Origin: Eledone cirrhosa
Lineage: Eukaryota
NCBI GenBank assembly: GCA_964016885.1
Contig: OZ024741.1
Coordinates: 345,340,001-345,404,000 of the forward strand
DNA: 64,000 bases
Direction: 5' to 3'
Below are positions 24,961 through 62,270 of the stretch, one piece after another. Each line of letters begins with the position of its first letter. The first letter of the stretch is position 1. The notes beneath the pieces were generated by a model, which saw only the letters and a list, made by a program, of their open reading frames with translations, ran no database searches and was not told the origin of the DNA. A program made the position numbers and the translations under genes.

Positions 24961-25159
24961 TAAAATATATTCGCTAAAGGTACAGTTGAGTCGAAAGACT
25001 ACATCGTACCGTATTGGATGACATCATGGATAAAACCAGTCGGGAGGGAGGTGGAGAAATTTATAAGTATTTAGCGGAAAGGCAAACGTTGAGAGCCTTT
25101 GCGCTATAACTGTGTAATGTTACCTTCCCCTCCCTCCCGGCTTGTCTCCCTTGCCAAAA

Positions 25160-26174
25160 GTACAGTTCACAGCGCAGACAATATCAAATTACATTTACTG
25201 ATATAAATTACAGCGGGAAACATGACAATAGCAGAATTAGAAACATACTTAATGCCAGCAAGCAATTTCAGAGTCAAATCATGCAGTTACAAAGTATCTA
25301 ACATAATACCATTAACAGATGAATTGGGTACATTACAAGGGACTACAACAACTAACACTACTTTCAACACTAGACCATGGAGGATACATTATGTAGATAA
25401 CAAATATGCACTATTTCCTAATCAAACATGGAATATAAGTCATTTAAATAATAACTGGACACATAACATACCACTAACAAGAGAGGAAGGTAAATTAGGA
25501 GGAATAGTAAGTAATAGACAAATTAGAAAAGATTGGTGGCTCTGGCAAGACACAAAAGCTGCAACACCTACAGAACAATAGAAGAAATACTATCATATCT
25601 AAACACAGGCGACTTCCAATTCTTATACGCTGGCGATACAGCACAATACACATGGATCAATAGAACACCTAGTTGGTTTTCGCTTATGGGGTATTACGCA
25701 TTCAACACTACTTTCGAACTACCAACAATAAAATTAACTAACGGTTTACCTTGTGAAATAAATACATATTCGGGGGCGAAAAAATCACAATGGGCACCAA
25801 CAAAAGATGGGACATGGAGTAGAGATTTAGCAGTAGATAAAACTGAGGAGGAAGAAAATACGCGTAGATCACATCTAACACAGTTTCCTATAAATCCATC
25901 AAATCCACCACCAATAGCAACATTAGACTCAGTACCTATATTAGATTCACAAAATAACCCATCAAAGATATCATTTATGATAACGATAACTTATTACTCA
26001 GAAATAGATTTCAAATATATATCTGGTAGTCCTCAAACAATGGGTTGGATGGCTTGGGGTGCAGCTAACGCAACAATAATGAATTCAGCAAAAACTAACC
26101 TATGTAAATGGCCACAAGGTTTACGTAATTATGAAATAACGAGAACTGGTAAAACTCACCAAGCACATCGTTAA
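25160..26174 (+). pseudogene. VP: Endogenous parvovirus-like element 1: capsid protein, 5'-truncated with one frameshift
   Basis: FRVKSCSYKVSNIIPLTDEL..TTFNTRPW..YVD resembles hamaparvovirus/densovirus jelly-roll strands; paralogous pieces at 30400-30950 and 56380-56487. Confidence 0.8.
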
Positions 26175-26223
26175 AGTAGTATTACAATGTAACCATTTTC
26201 CATTTCAGAACGTTGGACATAAA

Positions 26224-27843
26224 ATGTACATGTGTATCTATCCTTGGATAGAAGAAAACGATTTTTTGGGGGATAAAGGTTTAATACCGATAGAACATTA
26301 TCAGCTTAATGTACATAAATATTACGAAGATGAAAGTAGAAAAGATGTATACCAAACCAATACTAACTACAAACTAAAAGAATTCATCCAATCAACGAAT
26401 GCAACCGTAATTTACCATCCGAAAAATAACGCACTTTGTCAAAAGAAAGAATGGAATGCCTTTAACCACTTCCACATTATATAGCACAGTATTGTACGAC
26501 CTGGTGAAAATCAAAAAATGAAATACATAAGAAGTCTCTACAAAAAAGCGACTAAACTAAGCAGATACATACCTGAATGTCAACGCATCAAATTTCCATC
26601 AAGCATGGCAAACTACTTCTGTCGACCACCAAGATACGTATTAATTAAAGGAAAAGATAGCATAAACGAACTATTCACCGATTGGTGTATGCAGGAATAC
26701 GTTCCTAAACCAGACTTAACAATCAAACCAATAAGTAACAAACAACCTACTGAGGAACCAACATTTAAATCAAAGTCAGGAACAACATTAACTCTGTTCA
26801 ATTACCTAACATATATCTTCACTTCAAAAAGATTTCGTACAGAACAAGACATGAAATCACATTGGTTACATAGACCAAACAATGACAACTTCATGCGAGC
26901 AATTTCTCATCCGATGTACAATTCGGTTATGAAAAAAGTCCTAGAATGCGAAAAATAAAAAAATCTAAATCAACCATTCAAAGAAAAATTTGAAAACATG
27001 CCATGGGAATACTTCGATAACAACAAGTGCTACATGGACAGAGACGTTTCTCTGAAAATATTCCCATCAATACTTCTTACTCAAAACATAATTGAATCTA
27101 CATTTGTAACAACAGTATGGGAATTACTGACACAGAAGAAACCGAAAAGAAACTTACTCGTATTAAGAGGCATACCGAACACTGGAAAGTCAATGATAGC
27201 AAGAAGTGTTGCTGACATGTTTACACATGTATCAACAATTCAAGGTATCAGTAGCTTCCCGTTTCAAAATCTGGTAAACGTTGAAATCGGTTTAATTGAA
27301 GAACCAAATTTCACGTTAGAAACATTACAAACTTTCAAGAAACTTGCCGAAGGCGTGGACACTGAGGTTGCGATAAAATTTAAACAAGATCAGGTGGTCC
27401 ATCGCACACCACTTATCACAAGCAACAACAAATTCGACCAAAACGCACCGCTGTCGGAACGAATTGCATTCATAACAAGATACACCGAATATCTATTCAA
27501 AGCAACTTCACCATTTTTGAAACATGTTAAGAAAAAATTAAATCCATTTATATGGAATGAACTATTCTATGAACGTTGCTTTAGTAACCTCATCAATGAA
27601 GATAGCTCATCTTCCGACGACAATCTTAATTTAATTTTAGATGAATACGAACGACTGCAAGAAGAAGACAGGAACAGATTTCGGACTCCGTCTCCTAATA
27701 GAAGCGGGGACACCGTCAGATTGGAGTGCAACGAAGAAGAAAACTCAGACTCAGACAAAGAAAACCAACCAAGAGAATGTGCGTCTAATGTGCGTACAGC
27801 ACAGACGCACATTAGACGTGGGCAATGCGACTGCACCTTATAA
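26224..27843 (+). pseudogene. NS1: Endogenous parvovirus-like element 1: NS1/Rep (HUH endonuclease plus SF3 helicase), disrupted
   Basis: NHFHII HUH motif (~26465-26481), motif III-like MANYFC, Walker A GIPNTGKS, Walker B LIEEP, FKKLAEG, motif C ITSNN, acidic/Cys C-terminus. Confidence 0.93.
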
Positions 27844-27893
27844 ATTCAAGAGCGGGCGCTGTATCACCAAATAGCAGCTGACACTCGAATGAC

Positions 27894-28904
27894 ATGGACC
27901 TCCAGGAGAAGAATAAGTTCAACGAAGACTTCTTTCAGGACATAACCAATGTTGACAACCTCACCGCTTATACCTGGGTGTATAGGTGGGCAGAAGAAAA
28001 GGAATTTAACTGGCGGAAACCTGACTTATACAAGAAACCACACCAAGTCATTAATCACCAAAGTTATAAAGAAGAGCACATCTTGTTATTTCGTATTCTG
28101 TGTACATTTTCTAGTATTATCATTTATCACCCTCGCAGACCCATTAGAGTAAAGCATTGTAATGACATTGACCACTTTCATGTTATTATCTGACACTCTA
28201 ATCATCCGAGTAGTCAACATTCTTTCCTCAAGTTGAAGAAGAGTCTACTAACTAATACTGGCTACGATTTGAAAGCGGTAAAGATACAGTCACCGGCAGG
28301 ATTCGCAGAATATCTAAAGTATGAAGTGGTGAAAGAATGGGGTAAGAAAGAATTGAACCCGCTAATGTGGCTCGTAATATGGCATGAGTTTATAACCGAT
28401 TACAAGGAAAATAAATACCTATCTACAAAGTTGACGTCGTTACCAGAGAGCAAGCATTATATTAACCATATGGGATCGTTTAAAAAGAAAGTGACGTCGA
28501 GAAAGAGACCATTACCGGAGGCTACTACTTCATGTATTGAGGTAAATAAATGTGGTAGTGGTGTGAGTTACTGGTTCCCTTCTCATTCAACTAAAGAGAT
28601 TGAAGATGACGACGATATTAAGAGAAGCAAAAATGATGATACTGATCGTGACTATAAAAAGGCAGAAGAATATTGGAAACCCTTACTTACAGAACCGTTG
28701 CTGAATAATAACGAGTACTTGGAAGACCTGAATAACGAAAACTGGGATGAAGAGTTAAAAATAGACGAAGGAATAAAGGCGCGAGATATAATATCGGGTG
28801 CTGATGAAGCGATAGCAGGATTGTGCAGAATGGACAGCGAAGATTTACAGCAGTGTTGTTTATTGCATGGGACAGACTTTTCTTCATGTAATTTTGGTGA
28901 ATAA
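27894..28904 (+). pseudogene. NS1: Second parvoviral NS1 (different lineage), HUH domain fused in frame to the NS1 C-terminus with no helicase
   Basis: NLTAYTWVYRW, DHFHVII(*=W)H, PAGFAEYLK, then KKELNPLMW (cf. KKKLNPFIW in EVE1); AATAAA at 28900-28905 overlaps the stop. Confidence 0.8.
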
Positions 28905-28959
28905 ACAGTGTGAAACTTGATATATTTGTTTGTCTTTATTGAATCTGATAAAGTAGGTC

Positions 28960-29178
28960 ACCATTGAAAAGTTCTAAATATTTTTCAATGGTCGAAGGTG
29001 TCATGATGGCGGCTGAAAACAAGATGGCGGATGGATTGGAATATCTCCTATGCTATTGATACTATTATTATATTATTATATATATATAGTAGTATAGTAG
29101 TAGTAGAATGTATTATAGAAGAGGAGTGATGACGCCATGGCCGCCATGACACCTGTGACCATTGAAAAATATTTAGAA
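28960..29178. repeat. Candidate parvoviral terminal hairpin
   Basis: TTCTAAATATTTTTCAATGGTC..AGGTGTCATG..GGCGGC pairs with GCCGCCATGACACCT..GACCATTGAAAAATATTTAGAA around an AT-rich centre; lies just after the viral poly(A) signal. Confidence 0.65.
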
Positions 29179-29194
29179 ATAAATATTGTGATAA

Positions 29195-29424
29195 TTAATG
29201 ATGTGGTGCACCAACGGAACTTTGTCGATCCTGTAGACCCTCATGTGCACACGCAACTCATAGAGAACACATGGAGCCGTGCGAAGAAAAAGCTTCGTCG
29301 CCAGCATGGGACCAGCAATGCTTTATTCCTCTCATATCTAGCTGAATTTCTTTGGCGGCAGAGAGTTGGTGCCAACAAGTTTGGCGAAATGCTAAACTGT
29401 ATTGGAGCTATTTACTGGGTGTAG
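29195..29424 (+). pseudogene. Merlin (IS1595/ISXO2-like) transposase 3' fragment
   Basis: VVHQRNFVDP..HTQLIENTW..SYLAEFLWR; close relative of the 53566-54540 ORF. Confidence 0.88.
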
Positions 29425-29959
29425 TAAAGATTTTAATAAGGTTGGTAAATTTAAATTTTATATGCAACAAACGTTTAAATATGTAATTTTTTTCAACACA
29501 CAACAGTTTAAATATGTAATTTTTTTCAACACACAAGTTTAAATATGTAATTTTTTTCAACACACAGAACGGACAGTATCAACAACAACATTTACAATCG
29601 AAAATGAAAATAATTCATGACAATAAATGTAGTTTCATTTTCATGATGTTGAAAATGAAAATAAATTTACTTTCATTCTTCAGACCGTTAAAAGTCAGGT
29701 ATGCCTTGCATGCCAGTATTATTTTCTCGTTTTCTCTCAAAGTATGTTTCATTACCTGTTGTAATGCACGCACCACAATAAAACATAATTTATTGTTGGC
29801 ATATGTTGGACATAATTCGTCGTGTTTTCATTATTCATTGTTGAATGAAGAGAGACAAGTTTGTAACCAGAAAAATGATGTAAAAAATACTTCTATGTCT
29901 TATTTTGTATTGAATTTGTGGTTGGCTTGCTAGATTCACCAATAAACCAACACACTAAA

Positions 29960-30395
29960 TACTTTTGAAAATAGCAAAACTATTAGGAATATATATAAAA
30001 AGGCTTCTAATTTCAACAGAAACGTACCAGAAAGCCAATGAGTTAAATTTCCGAGCAGTCTCACAAACTATCTTTGTCAATCACCGAGAAAACTTATATG
30101 TAGCGGGTGCAACAAACTTAATGGCAACTTCGCTACTTGGTGTGAACTTGATTACATTCCTAGAGAATCAAATACACCAGCCAAAAAAAAAAGAAGAAGA
30201 AACTAATGTCGCATTTAATAAAGGATCGTTGATTTTTTACTGTTCACCCCCCTTCTGGAGTCATTTATTTCTACAAAGAGAAACGATGTATTGTCCATTC
30301 ATCGACAATCATTCATTTCCTTTAAGCCCAATATTTTCAAAGAAAAGAAAACAAGAAGATAACTGTTTACAACAAGAAGAAGAAGATATCGAAAG
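29960..30395 (+). pseudogene. NS1: Parvoviral NS1 fragments (relative of EVE1 NS1)
   Basis: Alternative frame reads KTIRNIYKKASNFNRNVPESQ*VKFPSSLTNYLCQSPR..FATWCELDYIP, aligning to EVE1 KYIRSLYKKATKLSRYIPECQRIKFPSSMANYFCRPPR..FTDWCMQEYVP; then a PPFWSHLF acidic tail. Confidence 0.75.
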
Positions 30396-30399
30396 CGAA

Positions 30400-30950
30400 A
30401 TGAGTGGCGACATTCAGCAGCCTGATTCAAGTGCATCTAAAGTTGGACCACAAGTGGAGGATCTGGAGCAAGAATAGCAAGCGATATACCAACTACTGTA
30501 GGTGATAACAATCCTATTGTATGCAAACAATTTTCAAGAACATTTTTTCATTACCTTGACGCATTCGACGTACCTATAGATGTCTGCAAATACAAACTAA
30601 ACGTAACTCATGAACAATATACATCACTACAATTCATTCACCGAATGGTAGAAATACGATATACTGATTTACGAGCATCAATAACAAAAGCAGAATTGCA
30701 AACATATATGTATCCATGCATCGCTTGGAGAGTTAACAACGTAGGATTCCAAGTCAGTAACATCATTCCAATTACAGACGAATTAAGTACTGTACAAAAT
30801 ACAACAACAACAAATACAACTTTCAATACACGACCATGGATAGCGTGTTACGTTGATACAGATGCACGATTTTTTGCAAACAGAATAGCAACTATACCAC
30901 AAGTGAATAAAAACTTCGGAGAAAACATACCGTCAACAAGAGACGCTGGG
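30400..30950 (+). pseudogene. VP: Parvoviral capsid N-terminal half (relative of EVE1 VP)
   Basis: MSGDIQQP..GGSG..KQFSRTFFHY..WRVNNVGFQVSNIIPITDELSTVQNTTTTNTTFNTRPW. Confidence 0.82.
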
Positions 30951-31259
30951 TAGTGCTGCTCGTCCATTATAATTGCAGCACTATTACAAGAATATCACAA
31001 TGATGCATTAAGGTAAGGGCGATAATTTGAGTAACACTGACTAATAAGTAATGTCTTAACTTAGTATTATCACGTCTTATCACTACATGCTTAATTGATG
31101 AATTCCATTTCAAAATAGCACATTACTAGTCATTCTTGCATTAGTTCTATTGAACTCGTTGCCTCATTGATCCTTTATTGAGTCTGCCACTCTAATTTCC
31201 TCAAGTTAAGTTATTACTATTCCTACATGAAAGGAATAATCTTCATATATAACTTGTCT

Positions 31260-32590
31260 CGACTTGGTTAACACCCATGTGTTTAATTTGCAAGGAGTCC
31301 TTTTCGAATGAGGCAATCGCGTTTGTGTAGACACCTGGAGGTTAGGCACCCCGATAAGAGATATAAAGATTTAGCATACTTTCAGTCTCTTAGCGACCAA
31401 TTTCAGAAAACAACACTAATTTCTTCTGCCTTTTCAAAAGTTGAAGCTTCAAATGTTGATGGACTTGTCGCATCTTACAATATTGCCAACATAATCACAA
31501 AGTGTGGCAAGCCACATTCCTTGGGTGAAACATTGGTAGCTCCTGTCATCTCAGAAGTTCTTTCAACAGTACTACATCAGAACCCATTAAAGATCTTGAA
31601 ATGTATTCTGTTGAGTAACGACTCAATAAGGAGACGCATCGACGAAATGGCGGAAAATGTTGAACAAAAATTATGCAACATCTTGAAATTGACACAATTT
31701 GCTTTGCAACTTGATGAAAGCACACTTTCCGGGGATCTGTCCTTACTACTGGGATACGTGCGATTTTTACACCAAAACGAAATGCACGAGGAGCTTCTAT
31801 TCACTCTGAATCTGCCAAGGGATACCTCGAAGAAAAAGAGATACCTCTTAACAATATTGTATCGTGCTACGGACGGCGCAAGAGCAATGGTCAGCCAACA
31901 TAAGGGTTTCGTCTCTCTTCTGAAGAGGGAAAATCCATCTGTATTTGCTATTCATTGTCATTCATCGACAACACTTGGCTGCGAAGAAACTTTGCAGGTC
32001 TTTGCAGGTAGCCATTGATGTCATCAATTATATCAAACGAATTTTCCAGCAACTGTGCGAAGATAATGACGAAGAATTCGTCGAGTTGCTCCTTCGTACT
32101 GAAGTGAGGTGGCTTTCAAAGGGCAAGTGCCTTACTCGCTTCTTTGAACTGTTCGACTATCATTGAGTTTCTTCGAGGACGCAACACAGAACTGTATAAA
32201 AAAAATCCTCGATGTGAGGCAAGACTGCGCCTACCTCGCCGACATCTTTGACAAATGCAATAGCCTCATTATGACTTTGCAGGGGGAGAAGATCACCTTG
32301 TTTAAAGCAAGGAATGTTGTGAAAATATTCCTGGTCAAATTGAAAGTCATCGAAAGGAATCTTTGTCGACGGGAATTCTATAATGTTCCTAGTGACGACA
32401 ATGTTCAAAACATTGTGAGCGATGACCAACTCCAAATTTATACCGCGCACCTCCGTTCACTACAAGACAACATGAGAGAACGGTTTGTCGACCTTTTGCA
32501 GATGGACATCCCAATGTGGATAGCAGATCCCTTCATAGCTAACGTCGACGATTTGGACGTTAAATTTTAGGAAGAATTAATGGGAATGTT
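31260..32590 (+). pseudogene. hAT (Buster/Charlie, ZBED5/SCAND3-like) transposase, frameshifted
   Basis: L.RHL..RHP, KPHSLGETL, LSNDSIRRRIDEM, FALQLDEST, TDGARAM, HC..HRQHL, EVRWLSKG. Confidence 0.9.
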
Positions 32591-32617
32591 TTTGTTTGTA
32601 AATAAGAGGTGCCCTAT

Positions 32618-32625
32618 TATAAATA
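32618..32625 (+). promoter_or_regulatory. Candidate TATA box for the EVE2 capsid gene
   Basis: TATAAATA about 40 nt upstream of ATG 32665. Confidence 0.4.
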
Positions 32626-32664
32626 TCACTGTAAAGCATTGGCAGTATCATTATATTTTTTCAC

Positions 32665-34387
32665 ATGCCACCGATAAGAGGTGCCAAGAAAAAGAGCGGT
32701 GAAGATCCACTAAAAGAGAAGACATACGAATTACACCCACCAGGCTATAAATTCCTAGGGCCTGGAACACATATATTCGATAAGTTAGAAAAAGTACCTC
32801 TTAACGAACTAGACAGACTAGCGAAAGTACATGACCTCCACTATACCGATCCTTATAAAGATACTTGGGAGGCAGACAAACAATTCATCGACGGAGCCAT
32901 CCACCAAGGCCCACTCGGATTACTTTCAGCAGGAGCTATCTACGCTAAACACAATTTTGGGCTCGATCAAATCTTCAGACCGGCCCATCCAGATAGTTAT
33001 CGTGCTCTGTTTCCTAGTCCTATACCTCCTCAAGATATGGCAGATTCGAAAGGCAGCCAAGGCGAGGTCAGCGCTCAACCAAGCCATTCCACACAAAAAA
33101 TCCAATCAACAGGCATTCCAGATGACGCAGGAAACTTCAAAAGAAGATACATCATATCCAGAACTTTCAGAAACGTAATTAAGACAACAAATATGAACGA
33201 AGCTCCCGTAACTTTCGAAAAGTTTAGTTCCACTGGAGAGAAAACTTATCACAATATTGGACACTACGCTAAAGGTACAGTTGAGTCGAAAGACTACATC
33301 GTACCGTACTGGATGACATCATGGATAAAACCGTCACAATGGGAGGCGATGACTCAAATGGCAACATCACACAGAGTTTCAAAAGAAGGATTCAAAATTG
33401 ACGATATCATTTGCAGTGAATTCACCTCAAGAAACAACAAAGAAATATTCATTGATTCACCCACGCCCTACTTTGAAATTTACGTAGATACAGGAAAGTA
33501 TATCGGTCACGGAAATTTAAAATCCATTTCCAAACTACCGAACCAATGTCTACGTAAAACACAACCAACAACATTTGCAAATTTAGAATTACCGACATAT
33601 GAGTTTACATATTGCACACCAATAAAGCTAATCAATCAATTCGCAGAACCACAAATAGACGGCAAAATAGAAAAAACTAAATTACTAATTCACGAACTAC
33701 ACGACTGGAGAGATATGAGATCTAAACGAAAAATGAGACAAGGAGATACTTTCCAACACTGCTGGGACAACCCATCAAGACTGGAAATTGGACTAACAAA
33801 CTTCACACAAAACAACAACTATACAGTAACAGGCTTAACAAATACATTCGGCGACGCATTCAACTGGGAATCGAACGTTAATGTCGACATGACATGGGAC
33901 GGTTGCCTAGACACAGAGACAGCACCATTCGTTGGAAATGCTACAACTTCAAGAGACGATGGCTTCCAAGATAACAGAAAAAGAGCAAGAGAACCAACTC
34001 AAGAAGACATAAACTACACAGAACACTCCAACATAACGTTCGACCACATAAAAACACGTAAAGTAGCAGGTATAGATAGATGTCCTCGATTCGGGAAATT
34101 TCATTGTGGCAAACAGAACAGTCATTAACAAAGTACTATACACACCAGAAGAACCTCAAGAAATGGTATTAATAAACGTACCCGTAATAGTAAGACCTAA
34201 CAACACAAGACCATGTATCTACTTCACATTCGACCTGACATACTACATCGAATTAGAATGCAGCTACGAACAGTTCAACCATCCTCAAGTGGTAGCTACA
34301 ATAGACCCACCAACGGCATTAGTAGCAGCACCAGATTGGAATTTCAGTCAATTCTCAGTAACATGCCCAAGCAGGCACTTACACTAA
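32665..34387 (+). CDS. VP1: Endogenous parvovirus-like element 2: VP1 capsid with phospholipase A2 domain (487-aa open frame, C-terminus continues in another frame)
   Basis: PPGYKFLGPG Ca-binding loop and LDRLAKVHDLHY catalytic HDxxY motif; jelly-roll-like SRTFRN and HRVSKEGFKIDDI..PYFEIYVDT; ORFs 32665-34128 and 34106-34387. Confidence 0.9.
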
Positions 34388-34506
34388 AAAAAGGAAAACA
34401 GGGCGTACAATACAATACAACGAAGATATGAAACGCCCACTACAATATATATCCGGGCATTTCGTTAACAAATAGAACACAGGCACTTAAACACATCAAA
34501 AAGCAC

Positions 34507-34514
34507 TATAAATA
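34507..34514 (+). promoter_or_regulatory. Candidate internal TATA box for EVE2 NS1
   Basis: TATAAATA about 40 nt before AAAC-ATG-G at 34552. Confidence 0.45.
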
Positions 34515-34551
34515 ACGTTATCGAAAACAAGTCACCACACAGCAACAAAAC

Positions 34552-35850
34552 ATGGCGGAAGCAACATTGTCGGACTACCAGTCAAACAAAATTTTAACGA
34601 CATCGTTTTCCAAGACGAACTAACACCTTACACTGGGGTCTATAGATGGCAAAACGACTTGGAATTCGAATGGGAAACAGTTAACAATTTGAAAACAGCA
34701 GCAGACACTCATTTCTCAACGAACAAATTACACAAAGTATTTACACAAAATACTGGGTAACTATGCATCGATTGTTATATTCCATAAAAGGAGTTATAGC
34801 AAGATTAAACACTGCCAAGATGCACCACATTTTCATATTATATCATGGCATAAGCTTCACCCAACGAATACACATTCGTTCTACATGCTCAAAAACATGA
34901 TAAGAAACAGCACGAAACCGTACGGAATGAACGCACAAAAAGTATTCAACCCATACGGACTATGCAAATACTTAACAAGCGACAAAGAAAAAAGAGAAAC
35001 CATCGCAGCGACAAACATCAACACTAAACCACAACTACATATATTACGAGCACTAACCGACAAAGAAATACAAATACCGGCATAAGAAACTACAAAAAAT
35101 TACACTGACAAACAAACAGTCAGAGGTAGAAAACACGACTTCATTAATGAACTCATGTTCGCCGCTAAATCAACAGAACTAGAAGACTTGATATGCTTCG
35201 CCAAAAACACAACAAAGAAGAATAGAAGCAAAGAATGGAACGATATATATCGTAACACTCCTAATTTAATAAGCATTATTAATGCTGCAGCAACTGAATT
35301 GAACATCGAGACAATATCAATACCCATTTGGCAACAAATACAACAAAAAAGCGAACTATTCAGCGATATGAACTACAAACATCATTCAGTTCAGACATCC
35401 CTCAATATTTTCACTGAATGGCTAAAACACCATCAATTCAACCCAGAGGTTTTCGCTAGAGAAACTTTCGAGGTGTGTCACAAAATTCACCCCCCAAAAA
35501 ATGGTTTACACATAACAGGAGTTTCAAATGGCAGAAAACGGATTAATGAATAGTGGCAGAATGCGTTGCAAAGCAGCAGACAGCTTCACATTTGGAAGCT
35601 GCATGGATAAACTACTAATATATACAGATGAAATGTGGTTTACAAACAACATTTGAAGAAGGGATATGCATTCTAGAAGGTACAAACACCAACAAGAACG
35701 CGTCCTTAAAAGAACACCAAGTCTATCAACAAGCAACACAGAACCATGGAGAGTAGTACCACAAGAGAAACAAGCTATACGTAATCGATTATTCTACTAC
35801 GTAACACATCAACCAATGCACGAACTGAAAGAACAAAATCGTCTAAAATG
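34552..35850 (+). pseudogene. NS1: EVE2 NS1/Rep, degraded
   Basis: NLTPYTGVYRW, PHFHIISWH (HUH), PYGLCKYL, KNGLHITGVSNG.K (Walker A), YTDEMWF (Walker B), CILEG, RTPSLSTSN (motif C). Confidence 0.87.
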
Positions 35851-41400: not shown

Positions 41401-42125
41401 CAGCTTGGAAAACTACATTAATATGTGCCATATTTAAACATTTTTGATAAATTTTAAAAACCGAAAGATCCACTCCTTGTCATAAAAGACTGTGTTGAAT
41501 GTTACGGGTGGTATTTTAAACCGGTAAAAACATACGTAGCTGGAGGTGCATTTTGTCGCACTGGATACCCTTTGTAATAAAAGACTTATGCCTGGTATTT
41601 TAAACCAATAACAACATACGTAGATGCAAAACAAGTCAGGCCATGACAAAATTGTGCACAAACCATGTGCTATGCAGTCCTACTCTCAGTACATGGAAAG
41701 TGGGGAGGTTAGACAGAACAGACAAGCAAATGACTTATTACATGTCGCCAAGTGGTGGAAGAGAGTTTTTTACTTTTTCAAAGTATGTTTCTGCAATACC
41801 CTGGTCATTTGGAAAGCCAAATCAACTCGCTGGATCATTACTGAAAATTGCCCAGTCGGATTCTGCGAATACTTAATACAAGACATTAACCTGAGATGGG
41901 TTGTCAGTGCAAATAACATTAATAGAAGAGCAGAAGTCAATGTTTAACAAACTTACAGATAAAGAATACGAAATACAAGAAATCAACACTGCAGAAGACA
42001 CACCATTGGGAGGAAAGAATACAATGGGAGGTGTGAATACGACTTCATTAAAAAAATGATGAAGAAGTGCAACAGCACAGACATGGGAGACATTATAAGA
42101 TTCTGACAAACGAAGCCAAATACAG
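41401..42125 (+). pseudogene. Second copy of the 22551-23030 piggyBac remnant, interrupted by a viral insert
   Basis: Starts CAGCTTGGAAAACTACATTAA as at 22551; colinear apart from extra sequence at ~41520-41600 and 41818-41999. Confidence 0.85.
41818..41999 (+). pseudogene. NS1: Parvoviral NS1 snippet (motif III region)
   Basis: CPVGFCEYLIQD.NLRWVVSANNIN..(F)NKLTDKEYEI versus EVE2 NPYGLCKYLTSDKEKRETIAATNIN..RALTDKEIQI. Confidence 0.7.
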
Positions 42126-42299
42126 AACACAATGGGACAATATTTACCGAAACACACCAAACTTAATGAATATTATATCAGCAGCAACAATCGATACATC
42201 GAAACCAAAGTAACAACAGAGAAATAAAGAAATATTTTTACCGAAATGACTGCCACATACCACGATATACAAACATCACTCAATATACTAGACCATTGG
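42126..42299 (+). pseudogene. NS1: Parvoviral NS1 snippet (linker before the helicase)
   Basis: QWDNIYRNTPNLMNIISAAT..HDIQTSLNILDHW versus EVE2 EWNDIYRNTPNLISIINAAA..HSVQTSLNIFTEW. Confidence 0.8.
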
Positions 42300-42855
42300 T
42301 TCCCAACCAGTGGGCCATAGCAAGTTATTGGGGGAGCCACTGGAATTAACTAAAAATCACAAAATTTCATACATAAAAAGAAGAATAGTTTACTAACATA
42401 ATTTTTTCTTTTTCTTGCTTCAAATTTTTATATTCAACTTTTTATCAACTTTCTACCTTTTCTAATTATGATTTTATTTCACTTGATAATTATTTAAATC
42501 TGGATATAACAATTTATGTTTTAGTAAAGAAACTTATTTTTATAACGGGATATATATTATTTATTTTAGTGAATTTCTCAATGAAAAAAAGAAAGTATGA
42601 TGATACATATCTTCATATGGGATTTGTTTGCATGCAAAAGAACAATATTGATTTGCCTCAATGTGTAACTTGTTTCAAGGTATGAGGCCCTAAGCTCAAA
42701 TTACATCTTTCAAAATGTCACCCTGAACTACCTGGAAAAGATGAATCTTTTTTTAAAAGGAAATCAGATGGTTTAAAAAATCAAAAGCTTGATGTAAGTG
42801 GTACTAATCATGAGACCAAGGCCACTATTGTTGAAGCTTCCTATCGTGTTGCTTG
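42292..42855 (+). mobile_element. hAT (Buster/ZBED8-like) 5' end
   Basis: CATTGGTTCCCAACC TIR-like start; MKKRKYDDTYLHMGF..PQCV.C..KL.LHL..HPEL..FFKRK..VEASYRVA. Confidence 0.8.
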
Positions 42856-43279
42856 TAATGTCACATTTTTGTACGCTCCTGTGGCAAATAAAGAAATATA
42901 TCTATGTATCTATCTATCTGGGATGGACACACGCGTGAAACTTGCTGGGTAAGTTCTGCCTAAATTTCTATCGAAATTCCTAACTGTGAACCTTCATTTT
43001 TATATCAACTTGTAGAGGGACTGCCAGGTCAAATTTTGATCTGGTCAGTCTCTCAAAATATTCTACGCCTTTAGGCGAAATAGTACATAAAAAGTTTTTT
43101 TTTTGGAAAAGCTAACATTTTTTAAAAAAGGCTGAAGTTTCTTCACCAACATTCAAAGGAGGAAAGGGAAAGATATGCTTACAGCTTCCCCCTGCCACTG
43201 TCATAGTAGCAGATGTCAAAGACAAAGGTCAGCCTGAAGTAGAATTTTCTCCACTTGCTGACTGACAACTTGACGTTGC

Positions 43280-43910
43280 CATGGCAACAAATCAAAACAA
43301 CACAACCAGCAGCACCAGCAACAACAACAACGCTATGAAGGAAAACAACTTCACAAATGAATTCCGCAACCACAGATCAAGGAATTGAAAACTACAAAAA
43401 CAACAACAACGACGACAATGACAACACCAACAGCAGCAACAATAATGACAACAACACCAACAAGAACAACCCCACAAACAAGGAAAAGAAAAGGTCTCGT
43501 TTGCACAAACTGTCCAAAATACAGAACTATATACACAGATTGGCATCTCTAATGCCGGAGAATTGCTAAGAGATGCCAAGCAATATATAACTTTTGAGGA
43601 GAATGGCACTTTTAGCATCACTTCAAGAATTGCGTAGAGACACTGTCCTGAAGACCATAGTTTTTAGGACAATCTCAAATACCATCAGAAAACCAGCTCA
43701 ATTAACTCAAAACGAAATTGAGATGGTTCTAAAAAACTCCACGAAGGACATTGCCTTCATACAGAAGGGAAAACTCTTCGGGAGTTTTTCAATAATAATG
43801 AAAGACTAATTGACGGCACAGAAATAGTCTGTGTTGCCAATTGTGTCCCCCCTCTACACCTTTTTCACCACATACATGGGAAAAAGGAGCCAAAAAATAA
43901 AAATAACAAA
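43280..43910 (+). pseudogene. Probable LINE ORF1 (Tx1/L1-like) 5' fragment
   Basis: Low-complexity N/Q/T-rich N-terminus from ATG ~43281 followed by a disrupted globular region; identity tentative. Confidence 0.35.
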
Positions 43911-43962
43911 TATCACACCAAATGTAAACATCTGGTTTCATCAATTTTGATGAAGACAGTAA

Positions 43963-44198
43963 TATCAAACCACATCGATGGCATCGGTACAAAATTACTA
44001 TACCAGGGCACCTCTTCTGAAAGTGAAATCACTGGTCAGCAGTGATCCTCACATCGTCTCGCTAACTACCTATAATACAATGTAATAAAGTCCGCTACTT
44101 CAACGAATGTGAGGATCACTGCTGACCAGTGATTTCACTTTCAGAAGAGGTGCCCTGGTATAGTAATTTCGTACCGATGCCATCGATGTGGTTTGATA
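43963..44198. repeat. Inverted repeat, ~95-bp arms and ~45-bp spacer
   Basis: TATCAAACCACATCGATGGCATCGGTAC..CCTCACAT / ATGTGAGG..GTACCGATGCCATCGATGTGGTTTGATA. Confidence 0.9.
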
Positions 44199-46815: not shown

Positions 46816-47129
46816 AAAAAAAACGTTCCTGTTTCACGACCTATTTTAATGGAAAAGTTGTGTACAGTGTAATTTACTCATCTTGCTTAAACCGGTTTAT
46901 AAATTCTAGCTGTTCTTTTGTTATTCTAATAAACTTCGTTACTTAACATTTATCTTTTATTTTGACTAAAAGAAGCCAAAACATTAGAAACCATGAGCAT
47001 TATGTAACAATGGGATTGTAGAATTCACTTGTAGCAAGAGTTGCCTCCCTTGTTATGACGTCAGATCAGCAGCAGCGCTTGTACAAATAAAATAGTCTAA
47101 CTGCAGCGTTCGAAGAAGCCAGATGTTAA

Positions 47130-47560
47130 TAGTTTTGCAGCAACTGTTGTCTAGGAATCGGAATATTTTGAGATGGATATATACATAGACAAAAGTCTCA
47201 TACACTGACAAAATGTGGTTTACCACAAATATTGAAGAGGTAAAATGCATTCTTAAAGGTACGCCTACATATATAAACCTTAAGCAACAACCAGAAAGGA
47301 TACTGAAAAGAACACCATCTTTAAGCACCAGCAGCACCAAACCATGAAATAGAATTATGCATGAAGTCATCCTCAACAGGCTTTTACTACTCGAAAAGCA
47401 CAAACCCATGCCAAAACTGAAAAAAATAGGGAATGATCAAATTAAACCCACTCAAAAGGGAGAAACAGTAATATATCACCCTGCAGAAAGTAAAGACACA
47501 AACTTTCATTTAAACTTCATATGGGTTTCACTTAATAGACCAGGAGGAAATCAACAATTT
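47130..47560 (+). pseudogene. NS1: Two parvoviral NS1 snippets: helicase B-C region, then an HUH-region piece
   Basis: TDKMWF..EEVKCILKGTP..ERILKRTPSLSTS..NRL; then ETVIYHP..FIWVSLNRPGGNQ (cf. EVE1 ATVIYHP..IVRPGENQ). Confidence 0.75.
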
Positions 47561-48369
47561 TAATACTTGTCTCTTCACCAAATTTAAAAAAAAACAAAAA
47601 AACAAAAAAAAAAAAACACTTGGCTTATTATTTTAGTCCACAGTGTAGGCCTGAGAGAAACCATACCACAGTGAAATTTGTGGAGAAACTTTTACCTTGA
47701 TTAAAAATGACCCCCAAAACAGTCCCAATGTCTGGGGTGGTCAAATAAAGCAGTAAGATGAGTATTCTAGTTACAATAAATTGTGTTTATGTATTTATTA
47801 CACTAACACTTACCAAGAAGGATTGTCATTGTGTCCAAAATCTTGGTGCTTGGTTTGCAATAAAACCTAAATTACATAGAAATACCAGTCTACCAGATAC
47901 TTGGGCACAAAAGTGATTTGTTGATAATTATATAATTAGATCATTCTTTCACAAGGTATGCCCAACTTCAATAAAATTATAACTGTGATACCAGGTCGAT
48001 CTCAACAGTCTACTATCATTACTGCAAGTGTGTGGCGAATGCAGCAGACTGGTTTTAGAACACTTCCAGTAGCTATCTGCTTCTTGTACCCCATCTGCTA
48101 TATGTGGCATGACACTGACATGTATGCCATGACATTTTCCCTCGCTGGCAGCAGTGGAAACTTTGATGGTTTCCAACCTGGCCACCTCAAAGTGTTGTTA
48201 TCCTTCCTATCAGCTGAAGCCTTCTGTGTGCAATTGTGGCACTCAACAGGTTAATCCATGGCGCCCTGGGTCCTACATCCGAGGCTTCTTTTCAGCAGTG
48301 GCGAAGGTGGCAAATGCCGACTGAGCGCTTGCAAAAAAAAAAAAAAAAAAAAAAAAAAATTGTAATTTG

Positions 48370-53015: not shown

Positions 53016-54698
53016 GGCATACGTCAAAACGGCCGGTCGCAAAAGTGAAACTAATTTTTGACAGTTACGTACGTCATTACTTTCAATTTGGATTGTGAAT
53101 TTGTTTATTTTTTTACAACAGGTCTCAATAGTGAAAGTGAATTTTGTTGATGGTGTTAATTAGTATTGCGTGTACGTGATAATTTTTGTTTAATTCTTTT
53201 TTTGTGTATTGTGTGTACGGAAAATTTTTTTTTAAATAATGACATTGTGTGTTGAAATAAATAAATATTGAAACTCCTTATTTAAATAATGACATTGTGT
53301 GTTGAAAGAAATATTGAAAATCCTTATTACACCCTATAAATAGCTGAAATACAGTTGATCATCTCGCCAAACTTGTTGGCACCAACTCTGTCGCCAAAGA
53401 AATTAAGGTAGGGTCATAAGAAGGACAGAGAATCATAAGGGATTTGGGTCAAAGGGGCAGCTTGGGGTCAGAAAGGCAGATATCTGTCAGAAGGGCTGGG
53501 AAAATTTTTTTTTTTTTTAAACAAAGCACTGAAGGGCTGGATTGTAATACAGTGTCACATCAAATATGGCTGGACGAGTGTATGGTCGCGTTACCTTAGT
53601 TGAAGATATTTTGGATACCAATGCTATTCTTAATCGTTTTGAAACAGTGTATACACTGTGTCCGGCGATACACGGTGACACGTTGTGTATGTTACAGTGG
53701 TTGGCGAGTCGGCGTCTGTTGGCGAACAGTGTGAATTGTCCTGTCTGCAATGAGGCGTGCACATTGCAAAGAAATTCTGAGGGGATTGATAAATGGAAAT
53801 GGCGATGCGCCCACGACAAATTTAGTCAATCGGTGCGACGGAATTCTTTATTTTATCAAAGCCGTGTTCGACTCGAACACCTTATTGGCATTATGTATAT
53901 GTGGTGCTACGATCATCCACAAACTGAGATGTTCAAAGAAACAGAACTTAGCAACCAGACAATTATAGACTGGTGCAATTTCCTTAGAGAAATTTGTGAG
54001 CAGTATTTGGAGGCGAATCCTCAACAGCTTGAAGGATTCGATAAGAATGGTTCGTCGATCATTGTAGAGATCGACGAATCAAAATACTTTCATCGAAAGT
54101 ATCATCGTAGCCAGTGGAGACAAGGCCACTGGGTCTTCGGCGCTGTAGAACGCCATTCTGGACACTGCTGCCTCATCGCAGTCCCAGATCGAAGCCGTGA
54201 GACTCTTGTCCCCATGATACAGCAATGGATTTTGCCAGGAAGCCACATCATGTCCGATGGTTGGGCTTCCTATTCGGATATTGAAGACATTCAAGGTGGC
54301 ATTTACCTCCATGATGTTGTTGTGCACCAACGGAACTTTGTAGATCCTGAAGACCCTAATGTGCACACACAACTCATAAAGAACACATGGAACCGTGCAA
54401 AGAAAAAGCTTCGTCGCCAGCATGGGACAAGCGATGCTTTATTCCCCTCATATCTAACTGAATTTCTTTGGCGGCAGATGGTTGGTGCCAACAAGTTTGG
54501 CAAGATGATCAACTGTATTTCAGCTATTTATAGGGCGTAATAAGGATTTTCATAAGGTACATCAATTTATATTTCATATGCAACAAATGTATAGTTATTT
54601 TTTAAACAAACAAATTCACAATCCAAATTGAAAGTAATGACGTACGTAACTGTCGAAAATTAGTTTCACTTTTGCGACCGGCCGTTTTGACGTATGCC
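53016..54698 (+). mobile_element. Full-length Merlin DNA transposon
   Basis: ~90-bp TIRs GGCATACGTCAAAACGGCCGGTCGC.. / ..GCGACCGGCCGTTTTGACGTATGCC; 8-bp TSD CTCTTTTT. Confidence 0.93.
53566..54540 (+). CDS. Merlin (IS1595/ISXO2-like) transposase, uninterrupted 324-aa ORF
   Basis: CPVC zinc ribbon, IVEIDES, WVFGAVER, SDGWASY, HTQLIKNTW (catalytic E appears replaced by K). Confidence 0.9.
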   Translation: MAGRVYGRVTLVEDILDTNAILNRFETVYTLCPAIHGDTLCMLQWLASRRLLANSVNCPVCNEACTLQRNSEGIDKWKWRCAHDKFSQSVRRNSLFYQSRVRLEHLIGIMYMWCYDHPQTEMFKETELSNQTIIDWCNFLREICEQYLEANPQQLEGFDKNGSSIIVEIDESKYFHRKYHRSQWRQGHWVFGAVERHSGHCCLIAVPDRSRETLVPMIQQWILPGSHIMSDGWASYSDIEDIQGGIYLHDVVVHQRNFVDPEDPNVHTQLIKNTWNRAKKKLRRQHGTSDALFPSYLTEFLWRQMVGANKFGKMINCISAIYRA

Positions 54699-55687: not shown

Positions 55688-55842
55688 CTTTTGCAGCAAC
55701 TCTTGTCTAGGAACCGGAATATTTTGAGATGGAGATATGACTGCTGCATAGACAAAAGTCTGATAAACACTGATGAATTGTGGTTTGCCACAAATAATAT
55801 TGAAAAAGCAAAATGCATTCTTGAAGGTACTCCTACATATAC
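55688..55842 (+). pseudogene. NS1: Parvoviral NS1 helicase snippet
   Basis: CIDKSLINTDELWF..NNIEKAKCILEGTPTY; nucleotide-similar to ~47132-47275. Confidence 0.78.
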
Positions 55843-56379
55843 AAAGCTGAGGTTACTATGATCAATTAAAAATAACCTAAATTCAGTAGTGGCCCCAGCA
55901 TAGTTGCAGTCTTGACTGAAACAAGTAAAAGTATAAATGAGGTTAAAAAATTATAATCTTATTAACTACATCTTATCTCAGACATACTCTTAAGTTCTTG
56001 GAGTTGAGTTGAGATTCAAAATTATAATAAGGATACTTTTTTTTTTAAAATGTTAATGAAAAAAATATTTAAAAAATGAAGAGAAAAATGGCAAAATGGA
56101 TAATGGATATATCATATAAAATTCCTCCTGGTGTGAGTTCAAATCCAGTCCAGGTCAATTTTGATGGTCCATCTTTCCCAGGACAATAAAATATAAGCAT
56201 CTGCTATAATACTAAAGTCAATACAATTGACAAATCCTTGAGAGCAATGCCTACTGAAACCAGTAAAAGAATAAAAAGGTATTGTGTATAGGTAGCTGTA
56301 ACAGGTTATAGTGGTACTATGGTTCATGTACACCTCACATCAAGAACAAATTGGTTCACGAACAATTTTTCTGAACAAG

Positions 56380-56520
56380 TAACGCATTAATAAGCTATTC
56401 GGCAAAAACTAACTATGTAAATGGCCGCAAGGTTTACGTAACTATAAAATTACGCGAAGTGGTACTACCAGACAGGCCATGCGTTAAAGTAATATTACCA
56501 AAAAACCTCTTTCATTTATA
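56380..56520 (+). pseudogene. VP: Parvoviral capsid C-terminus (relative of EVE1 VP)
   Basis: SAKTN.CKWPQGLRNYKITRSG..R* versus EVE1 SAKTNLCKWPQGLRNYEITRTG..R*; downstream TAAAGTA.TATTAC also conserved. Confidence 0.85.
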
Positions 56521-57411
56521 CTTTCAGATAGGGACCATCGGACTCTTACGCGAATTGTTAGAAAGGATCACAAAAGTACAGCTCCCAAAATTATTGCAGA
56601 GCTTAATGACCACCCCAAGAATCCAGTTTCCACAAAAACTGTTCGCCGGGTGCTGCACAAAGCCAGATTTCACGGGAGGGCTGCAATCGGAAGACCACTG
56701 CTTTCAAAAACAAACGTTGCAAAGCGTTTAGAGTGGAGTAAAAACCTACAGAATTGGTCCCTAGAGCAGTGGAAGAATGTTATTTTCTCGGACGAGTCAT
56801 CCTTTACCTTATTTCCGACCACCGGCCGAGTATACATGTGGAGACAGCCAAAAGAAGCATTTGACCCAGACTGCCTTCTTCAAACTGTTAAACATGGAGG
56901 AGGATCTGTGATGATCTGGGGGGGCTATATCTTGGAAATCCGCTGACCCAATGATTTCCCTTCATGGCAGAATTAATAGTCAAAACTATTTAGGCATTTT
57001 ATCTGATCAAATTCATCCTATGGTTGTGGAACTGTTTCCGTGGGGAAACAGTAATCTTTCAGGATGATAATGCACCAATTCACACAGCTAAAGTTGTTAC
57101 TGAATGGCACGAGGAACATTCTAGTGAAGTTGAACATCTTATCTGGCCACCACAGTCCCCAGATCTCAATATTATTTAACATTTATGGTGCATTTTAGAA
57201 AAACAAGTAAGGAGTCGATATCCTCCACCATCACTACAAGAACTGGAGACTGTTTTAGCTGAAAAATTCATTTGAAAACAATTCAAACTTTGTACGAGTC
57301 CATACTTCATAGAATTCAAGCTGTAAATTACTGCCAAAGGCGGTCCTACCCCATATTAAAATAAATTTGTTTGAAATTTTAAGGTGTTTCCATTATTTTG
57401 TCCAACCCCTG
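56520..57411 (+). mobile_element. 5'-truncated Tc1 transposon
   Basis: WKNVIFSDES, TVKHGGGSVMIWG, FQDDNAPIH, WPPQSPDLNII; right TIR ..TTGTCCAACCCCTG|TA. Confidence 0.92.
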
Positions 57412-57412
57412 T

Positions 57413-57580
57413 AGATATATAGAATACGTTTTCGTATGCGAATCGCCGTTTCTGAAACACGTAAGAATCAGAAACGCCAAATTGAAGAATCCAAGACTTC
57501 AACGAAACTGACAACTCCAACAAAGAAAACTACGACCCAAGAGCAAAGTGGAGAAAATACGCAAGGAAATTGAACTCAGA
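57413..57580 (+). pseudogene. NS1: Parvoviral NS1 C-terminal snippet (relative of EVE1 NS1)
   Basis: RYIEYVFVCESPFLKHVR versus EVE1 RYTEYLFKATSPFLKHVK; DNSNKEN versus DSDKEN. Confidence 0.72.
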
Positions 57581-57629
57581 AAGATATGCTGAATCGGCGA
57601 CAAAATTATAATTATATTCATAATGCATC

Positions 57630-60975: not shown

Positions 60976-62270
60976 ACTACGTTCATACTTTGACGGCCTA
61001 CCACGTCTCTCGAGCACGGACGCCAAGTTCTGCGAAAGACCGATCACAGCCACTGAGCTACAGGACGCTCTAGGCCACTGCAGGAAACGCAAATCACCCG
61101 GTCTAGATGGTCTACCCTATGAGTTTTACATAGGCATGCCAGACTTGTTCTCTGGCGTCCTCGAAGCCGTCTACTGCAACTGGCAGCAGAACGGGAGAAT
61201 TCCCAGTTCTGTAAGCAAGGTGCGTAGTAACGCTGATCAGGAAAGACAAGAACAAGGAGGACGAAATAATTAACTTCAGGCCCATAACTCTCCTAAACAC
61301 ACAGTTAAAGATTTTGGCCAAAAATATAAACAACAGTACACATACATCAACACGAATAACAAAAACTTGGCGGTGGAAACCGAGGGGAACACTTTCGTCA
61401 AATCAGAGACAGCACCACACCTAAAACTTATAAGGGTTTTGATGGAAACCTACCAGAAACTCATGGGTCAATTTTCGCAGGACATTGGAAACCCATTAAC
61501 CGCATCCTCTTGAAACGTTTCCCCACCCCACCCAAATGGAGATTGAACAACCCGATCTCCAGGAAACGAAAAGGTAAGTGCATCTTTTCGTCCTTTTTGC
61601 CAACATGGTAAATTTACGAGCTGGAAGCGTGAATGTGTGTGGCCTAGGGATGCCCTGGAAACAGGGCCAACTTTTAAACGACTTTAGGTCACATGGTATG
61701 GATGTGATAGCCATTAGCGCGTCCAGGATCCACAATAAGCAGCAACTAACCCCCATCTTTGATGACCGAGATCTACGCATCTCTGTCAGCCAGGAGATGG
61801 AGGGGGAGTAGCTGTTATGTTTCGGAAAAACCTGGACCTCGAAATACAGCAAATACACTTGGACCCAGTCTGAAGGCTCCATCTACAACAGTGTTGTAGA
61901 TGGAGCCTTCAGACTGGTGACCGTGACATAGCTGGAGTTCTTTCTGGGAACGTCTAACTCTTTGCTTTTCGTGGGGGGCTGGAATGGTATCTTGGACGCA
62001 CGTTGGGACTATGTAGGAACATGCCTCAGTAGAGGGGAGTGCAACAGCCTCAAAAGTTTAATCAGCCAATTCCAACTGGCCAATAGGTATCGACTAGATT
62101 TCCAGACTGCACCACAGTGGACGTGGACAAATCGCAGTGGGACAACTAGATCGTATTTAGATAGATTCTTAATTAGAGAGAGAGACAGAAAAATGTAAAT
62201 AAAGCTGTCCACAAATGTACATGGTTGCCTATTCGGACCACAAACTAGTCACTTGCATAGTCAACCATGA
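60976..62270 (+). pseudogene. Tx1/L1-like LINE pieces: RT start, ORF1-like tail, then APE endonuclease
   Basis: KSPGLDGLPYEFY..NFRPITLLN..KILAK (60976-61322); SVNVCGL..GGWN.ILD..WTWTN..SYLDRFL..SDHKLV (~61605-62255). Confidence 0.85.

Follow-up and report, generated by a model that had tools for sequence, protein, structure and literature searches.

Parvoviruses are replicated by a rolling-hairpin mechanism that depends on their NS1 protein, and a consensus nonamer is known for circular Rep-encoding single-stranded (CRESS) DNA viruses. For all parvoviruses the non-structural (NS) gene is stated to be located on the left and the gene for the capsid (VP) on the right (2024 review, PMC11357303, section 1.1.1), and an earlier note on the DNA studied here started from the same rule for monosense members of the family. 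Unplaced parvoviral sequences from molluscs are mentioned in PMC5013282. We analyzed 64,000 nt from Eledone cirrhosa (assembly GCA_964016885.1, contig OZ024741.1, positions 345,340,001 to 345,404,000; in the following, the window). It harbors several parvovirus-like fragments, among them two endogenous viral elements, EVE1 and EVE2, in which VP is positioned upstream of NS1 on the same strand. This order is very probably native to the viruses, since the same tight junction was found in a second lineage as well as in unrelated hosts, where NS1 is 34–69% identical.

VP is located directly upstream of NS1 in two distant lineages

The VP gene of EVE1 (25160–26174, + strand) lacks its 5' part, shows frame breaks and ends with a stop codon at 26174. 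It is followed by a hairpin-free spacer of 49 nt (26175–26223, + strand; fold z −0.05) and by NS1 (26224–27765, + strand), which carries a HUH-type motif and an SF3 helicase, has two premature stops and is cut near the C-terminus. The earlier note had described NS1 as beginning about 50 nt behind the VP stop without a hairpin in between, and the stop at 26174 and the ATG at 26224 confirmed this. NS1 of EVE1 could be aligned with residues 1–516 of an intact protein of 547 aa (P0001) at 69% identity. As the alignment starts with residue 1, the N-terminus of NS1 is complete and the spacer indeed comprises 49 nt.

The SF3 part of EVE1 NS1 matched Pfam Parvo_NS1 with E = 3.6e-13, and P0001 matched it with E = 1.4e-18; in the Atlas, the first match was NS1 (0.98). 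The combination of NS1 and SF3 that characterizes Parvoviridae was thus found by Pfam and Atlas, and in EVE2 by motifs and hhalign. A His-hydrophobic-His motif was kept in all aligned full-length NS1 proteins, and no Pfam nuclease family was matched. The VP profile of lineage 1, to which EVE1 belongs (profile A3), matched the solved capsids PDB 9nek (1e-10), 6wh3 (3e-6) and 3n7x (5e-4), which relates the EVE1 capsid to the chap/hama, PmMDV and IHHNV capsids. With these matches, and with EVE2 VP being homologous to lineage-1 VP, the capsid proteins are single jelly-roll VPs of the parvoviral type. AlphaFold models of VP were poor (pLDDT 45 and 33); their Foldseek matches were mostly parvoviral capsids but had a TM score of about 0.1 and were not used. 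The predicted Octopus vulgaris proteins P0069 and P0015 are named relatives of both viral capsids, which speaks for a cephalopod as the probable host.

EVE2 (32618–35830) starts with a TATA box at 32618 and an ATG at 32665, which opens VP1 (32618–34475 including the TATA box, + strand; frame breaks near the 3' end). Its phospholipase A2 (PLA2) domain was recognized by Pfam (E = 3.6e-8), and the Atlas assigned the protein to VP1 (0.93). VP1 is 37–38% identical to four intact proteins of 606–621 aa (P0065–P0068) on contigs of 3.8–4.5 kb. The C-terminal motif common to these four proteins was found at the stop codon at 34475, which ranked first among 4548 stop-anchored segments. VP homology therefore extends to 34475 and not only to 34387, as assumed before, and the spacer to NS1 measures 76 nt (34476–34551, + strand). 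It is hairpin-free and contains a second TATA box at 34507. The NS1 relic (34552–35830, + strand) has several stops and frame breaks, and its 3' end is cut at about 35830. The Kozak ATG at 34552, which had been taken as the start of NS1, is present together with the TATA box, but its frame differs from the frame with NS1 homology. This NS1 was identified by its motifs and by hhalign to lineage-1 NS1 (E = 9e-6, 19% identity). For VP the identity between the lineages is 23% (probability 98.4), and overall it is about 20%. These alignments show two homologous lineages that are far apart, in agreement with the earlier assignment of EVE2 to a lineage other than that of EVE1.

The EVE2 junction was bridged without any difference by contigs of runs X1, X2 and X3 (three of four runs). 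The EVE1 junction was covered by two overlapping contigs, and none among the matches listed spans it. All runs with junction contigs belong to one study, which is possibly the source of the assembly. No RNA data set was among the matches listed for the window sequence.

The PLA2 domain is present in P0013, P0020, P0068 and EVE2. No match was obtained for P0023 and P0034, and none is evident in the available VP sequence of a GenBank relative, Parvovirus octopus5722. The consulted part of PMC13426907, which uses a taxonomy of six subfamilies, confines PLA2 to a single transfer and two subfamilies other than Hamavirinae, Penbrevirinae and Metallovirinae. P0013 and P0020 combine hama-type capsids with an N-terminal PLA2, a combination that this part of the article does not list.

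The junction recurs in relatives from other hosts

An 89-kb ENA contig encodes P0005, an NS1 protein with 34% identity to EVE1 NS1 and 176 extra residues in front. We scored the residues that are possible in the other frames. One other same-strand frame of the P0005 front matched the C-terminal half of EVE1 VP with z 15 (one of ten frame/target tests; the others reached at most 1.5). In a second test (11 segments against 9 targets; background up to z 5.2), the match to the VP protein P0035 extended to the last VP residue, 11 codons before the NS1 methionine, with z 54. Conversely, in the second test the tail of P0025, a C-terminal VP piece on a 67-kb contig, leads in a different frame into the beginning of NS1 (z 15). 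P0005 and P0025 may represent one family in one host.

Two GenBank records from Buck et al. 2024 (PMC11071296) list the genes in the same order. Parvovirus octopus5722 (BK066711, 4780 nt, linear, from RNA-seq) is listed with Vbit, VP and NS1, followed by an antisense open reading frame (ORF) that overlaps the end of NS1. About 120 nt of the record precede the first ORF, Vbit is located near the 5' end and non-VP sequence is present behind NS1, so the list order appears to be the map order. In a comparison by eye, its VP differed from EVE1 VP at 18 of 119 positions (about 85% identity). Parvovirus arcovestia3551 (BK066726, 3410 nt, annotated as circular and complete) starts with a TATA region, followed by VP and then NS1. 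It originates from a tubeworm, so by this record the group is not confined to molluscs. In the same source, Parvo3490 and 3576a, which have a hama-like VP and a different NS1, are listed with NS1 first.

In the main text of Buck et al. 2024, as far as it was available, the terms "gene order", "octopus" and "5722" do not occur. Supplement 1 also names "endogenized" parvoviral contigs that were not submitted, from Sepia and Watasenia and, in one case, from squid. A literature search by exact-word matching, which covered few subscription journals, retrieved no description of parvoviruses with VP before NS. As far as this search reaches, the layout is undescribed, although relatives have been deposited. 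The proposal of an undescribed mollusc group went too far, as relatives are in GenBank and one is from a tubeworm. Scans of IMG/VR with NS1 and VP queries revealed no relative, only a weak match of 23 residues in a 20-kb contig. JGI metagenomes yielded no relative; a single match there, in an ORF that looks bacterial, was attributed to chance. No relative was found in a phage collection. When viral contigs were scanned with a 15-mer, 120 loci were obtained, and no relative was encoded among 122 loci examined.

Several observations weigh against a native VP-then-NS1 order. For BK066711 and BK066726, the order derives from the ORF lists and the initial 400 nt instead of feature coordinates. The available sequence behind NS1 of octopus5722 reads like host microsatellite DNA and the record stems from RNA-seq, so it may represent an expressed insertion, and no relative with known order is a proven free virus. 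The tail of P0017 showed no significant match to an NS1 start in the other-frame test. P0021 is an NS1 tail fused to the C-terminal half of VP, and P0063 also joins NS to VP. The order evidence does not comprise P0020 and P0065–P0068 (contigs of 3.8–4.5 kb), and EVE2 is the only firm junction of lineage 2.

That every relative with readable order is on a host contig, or possibly so, would also agree with endogenous, self-copying elements of parvoviral origin, which form transposon-like arrays and acquired the VP-NS order after integration. The read depth at 25300–26500, about 5–10 times that of adjacent single-copy bins, would fit such elements as well, pointing to several paralogous copies in the host. 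Intact VP1 genes are, however, present on stand-alone contigs of 3.3–4.5 kb (one cluster has 7 members), several distinct viral lineages are found in one tract, and the copies in the window have decayed and are not related as DNA sequences. We regard this explanation as hardly likely. VP before NS1 on one strand was found in EVE1, EVE2, P0005, P0025 and the two GenBank lists, instead of NS on the left with VP on the right or on the opposite strand. We concluded that these elements have family-like functions but break the cassette-order rule of Parvoviridae.

The viral tract is a mosaic with candidate terminal foldbacks

Upstream of EVE1, a 66-nt copy of EVE2 VP (24972–25037, + strand; 98.5% identity to 33267–33332) is fused to an imperfect foldback of 111 nt (25035–25145; z −5.4). 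With a short sequence common to both sides, the junction reads as a mosaic join. The foldback, located upstream of EVE1 VP, probably represents the left terminus (or else the origin) of the virus behind EVE1. Both of its arms match a 15-mer of the octopus5722 left end (0 and 2 mismatches; 0.01 expected).

At the other side, EVE1 NS1 is cut at about 27765 and a second virus fragment of the EVE2 lineage follows (27766–28904, + strand). It comprises a TATA box at 27839, an NS1 start at 27894 with 41–47% identity to the N-terminus of EVE2 NS1, the nuclease domain, the C-terminus and an AATAAA at 28900 that overlaps the stop. An internal deletion near 28316 removes most of the helicase from this second NS1 (27894–28904). 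Judged by its sequence, the region 25160–28904 combines two viruses in a mosaic, with joins near 27765 and 28316 and scars of deletions; it had been viewed as one genome. The NS1 C-terminus at 28904, the AATAAA and the terminal-type hairpin had been described correctly, but they belong to the second, internally deleted NS1 and do not close EVE1. The hairpin is a foldback of 207 nt (28972–29178; z −9.1; single copy in the window) and is probably the right terminus of the second virus. It is crossed by unbranched contigs, and other copies of the neighboring Merlin transposon continue with different letters at 29198. An origin as Merlin end or as member of a repeat family was not supported, as the window lacks a second copy and the contig evidence is contrary. 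We also considered 27766–27874 as a lineage-2 VP tail; the local alignment gave p = 0.45, and anchored-score ranks of 5, 10 and 11 were suggestive only.

A third element, of the EVE1 lineage (29967–30950, + strand), consists of a middle piece of NS1 (29967–30179; 48.5% identity to residues 99–166 of P0001) and the N-terminal half of a VP (from about 30290–30400; 43% to P0020). NS1 is cut mid-protein with a join near 30180, and here NS is followed by VP, which does not support a VP-first order. In both 29967–30220 and P0063, NS1 is cut directly behind the nuclease domain and VP N-terminal sequence follows; the common cut point is possibly a shared splice or recombination site. Past the cut, the third element has a basic stretch, a stop and an AATAAA (30217).

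The VP tail of another EVE1-lineage virus together with 30 nt of spacer (56380–56517, + strand) is 79% identical to 26066–26205. An NS1 tail of the EVE1 lineage (57410–57600, + strand) gave weak tblastn matches (E = 0.003 and 0.17), and a Tc1/mariner fragment (Pfam PF01498) is located between the two. Of the earlier pairing of a VP tail (56380–56487) with an NS1 tail (57413–57580), the VP tail was thus substantiated up to 30 nt past its stop, and the NS1 part is weak. More NS1 remnants, all on the + strand, were seen at 41850–42300, 47100–47570 and 55690–55850: a middle piece of the EVE2 lineage, two helicase pieces and one nuclease piece.

A mosaic with such joins (the 66-nt EVE2 copy at 24972 and those near 27765, 28316 and 30180) could mean that ordinary NS-VP parvoviruses were captured here and that head-to-tail concatemers or mosaic capture left the VP-NS joins behind as scars, and the fusion in P0021 could be read in the same way. 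The earlier note itself had named deletion scars at the junctions as evidence against its proposal. Such scars exist at this locus, yet the VP-NS1 junction recurs in P0005, P0025, octopus5722 and arcovestia3551. Moreover, in two lineages and several hosts an intact VP end is separated from an intact NS1 start by 30–76 nt without terminal remnant, and EVE1 and the copy at 56380 have a conserved spacer. Scars in ordinary viruses would have had to produce such a clean join repeatedly. In a VP tree with 13 rows (relatives and window sequences, midpoint root), P0021 clusters with P0023 and P0034 and lies outside the clade that comprises EVE1, P0025 and P0035 (support 100/99). The junctions of P0005 and P0025 and the list order of the two GenBank records largely refute an origin as scars, which we consider very improbable. 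VP upstream of NS1 thus holds as a property of the viruses, as the earlier note had proposed.

Linear and circular genome models

Based on the sequences, we favor linear genomes with VP before NS1, represented here by decayed mosaic insertions of at least two parvovirus-like lineages of marine invertebrates (probability roughly 0.55). Such a genome would be monosense, with a left hairpin, a promoter, VP, a short spacer, NS1, a poly(A) signal and a right hairpin. The terminal promoter would drive VP, and an internal TATA box at or just behind the VP end would drive NS1, whose putative HUH nuclease and SF3 helicase would serve in rolling-hairpin replication of the genome. Linearity is supported by the linear annotation of octopus5722 and by the 111-nt and 207-nt foldbacks, which are on the expected sides, one before a VP and one after an NS1 end. 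The two foldbacks derive from different viruses, however, and no element shows both ends. In addition, joins of NS to VP (29967–30950, P0063 and P0021) can arise from linear genomes of this order only via concatemers or mosaics.

Such joins would be expected from circular genomes, or genomes in head-to-tail circles, with the same native junction, both genes on one strand, and a long non-coding region that contains the origin and connects the end of NS1 with the start of VP. The order of the genes would then be defined only relative to the origin. The record of arcovestia3551 is annotated as circular, other apparently circular parvoviruses are reported in the available text of PMC11071296, and six VP copies on one 1.14-Mb contig as well as the fusions P0063 and P0008 hint at tandem arrays. 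Furthermore, a CRESS-type nonamer is located directly past the VP stop in both lineage-1 copies, at 26177–26185 (2 nt past the EVE1 stop) and, as a variant, at 56490. These were the only CRESS-type matches in the window (3 matches versus 3.1 expected window-wide). Neither nonamer has a stem (fold z −0.05 and 1.2), so that the stem-loop apex position characteristic of Cressdnaviricota was not found, and the nonamer is absent from the EVE2 spacer. NS1 of arcovestia3551 ends early in the record, as it would in a collapsed tandem array or a deletion circle. Foldbacks of 111 and 207 nt suit hairpin telomeres better than CRESS stem-loops. Circular genomes are therefore possible but doubtful in our view, and both alternatives of the earlier note, linear VP-first and circular or permuted genomes, are still alive.

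The host tract

Microsatellites are dense in the first 14 kb of the window and nearly gone past 16 kb. From 21 kb onward, 31 of 34 ORFs of at least 130 aa are on the + strand, versus one of five before. The long ORFs derive from decayed DNA transposons and retroelements; the types seen in 21000–64000 were piggyBac-like, Merlin, Tc1/mariner, pogo, gypsy RNase H and hAT-like. Judging by this strand bias, the tract from 21 to 64 kb looks like a one-strand transposon trap, similar to a unistrand piRNA cluster. A Merlin/IS1595 fragment (29198–29503, + strand; Pfam PF12762) is 85% identical to 54314–54613. Between two viral blocks, a high-copy transposase relic (31287–32570, + strand) contains ORFs and has a read depth in the thousands; by reading, it appears hAT-like, without a Pfam match. 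A near-perfect foldback at 43963–44198 (arms of about 95 nt, z −26) borders the end of a broken ORF region (43170–43960), for which no useful Pfam match was obtained. A palindrome of 53 nt (61865–61917) lies within a LINE-like region.

Comparison with known systems

If the native order holds, two lineages that are only about 20% alike break the NS-left/VP-right rule and would form an unclassified branch. This would raise the question of what sets the timing of early NS1 and late capsid expression if the terminal promoter belongs to the capsid gene. The topology would bear on the origin of linear parvoviruses from circular Rep-encoding viruses, and the tract suggests that a cephalopod-like host deposits pieces of viruses in a one-strand transposon trap.

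Among the relatives, octopus5722 shares with EVE1 the NS1 start and motifs, the listed order of VP and NS1 and the 15-mer of the left end; in the parts of the record available, it differs by intact ORFs and an extra small ORF upstream of VP. Similarly, arcovestia3551 has VP followed by NS1 and belongs by inspection to the lineage of P0005, P0009 and P0013, but its record differs in the circular annotation, a VP1 with PLA2-like N-terminus and a short NS1.

The best solved-structure matches of lineage-1 VP belong to Hamavirinae (9nek), Penbrevirinae (3n7x, IHHNV-type) and Metallovirinae (6wh3, PmMDV), which are monosense and have aquatic hosts. According to the section consulted of PMC11357303, all of their described members carry NS at the left and VP at the right, the reverse of the lineage studied here, and unlike these subfamilies (PMC13426907, in the part consulted) some of the relatives carry PLA2 on VP1. 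The ambisense Densovirinae share invertebrate hosts, PLA2 on VP1 and separate promoters for VP and NS, but their VP is on the opposite strand, while in the elements studied here it is on the same strand upstream of NS1.

A deep, unclassified branch of cephalopod and annelid parvovirus-like viruses, capsid-first and circular or circle-forming, with a genuinely parvoviral NS1, a hama-type capsid with or without PLA2 and a vestigial CRESS nick motif located between Cap and Rep, would be an intermediate between CRESS viruses and parvoviruses with hairpin ends; this is rather unlikely. Lineage 1 resembles unisense CRESS DNA viruses in the nonamer-like sequence between the end of Cap and the start of Rep, and one relative is circular according to its record. 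It differs from them in that its Rep is a parvoviral NS1 and its nonamer is without a stem.

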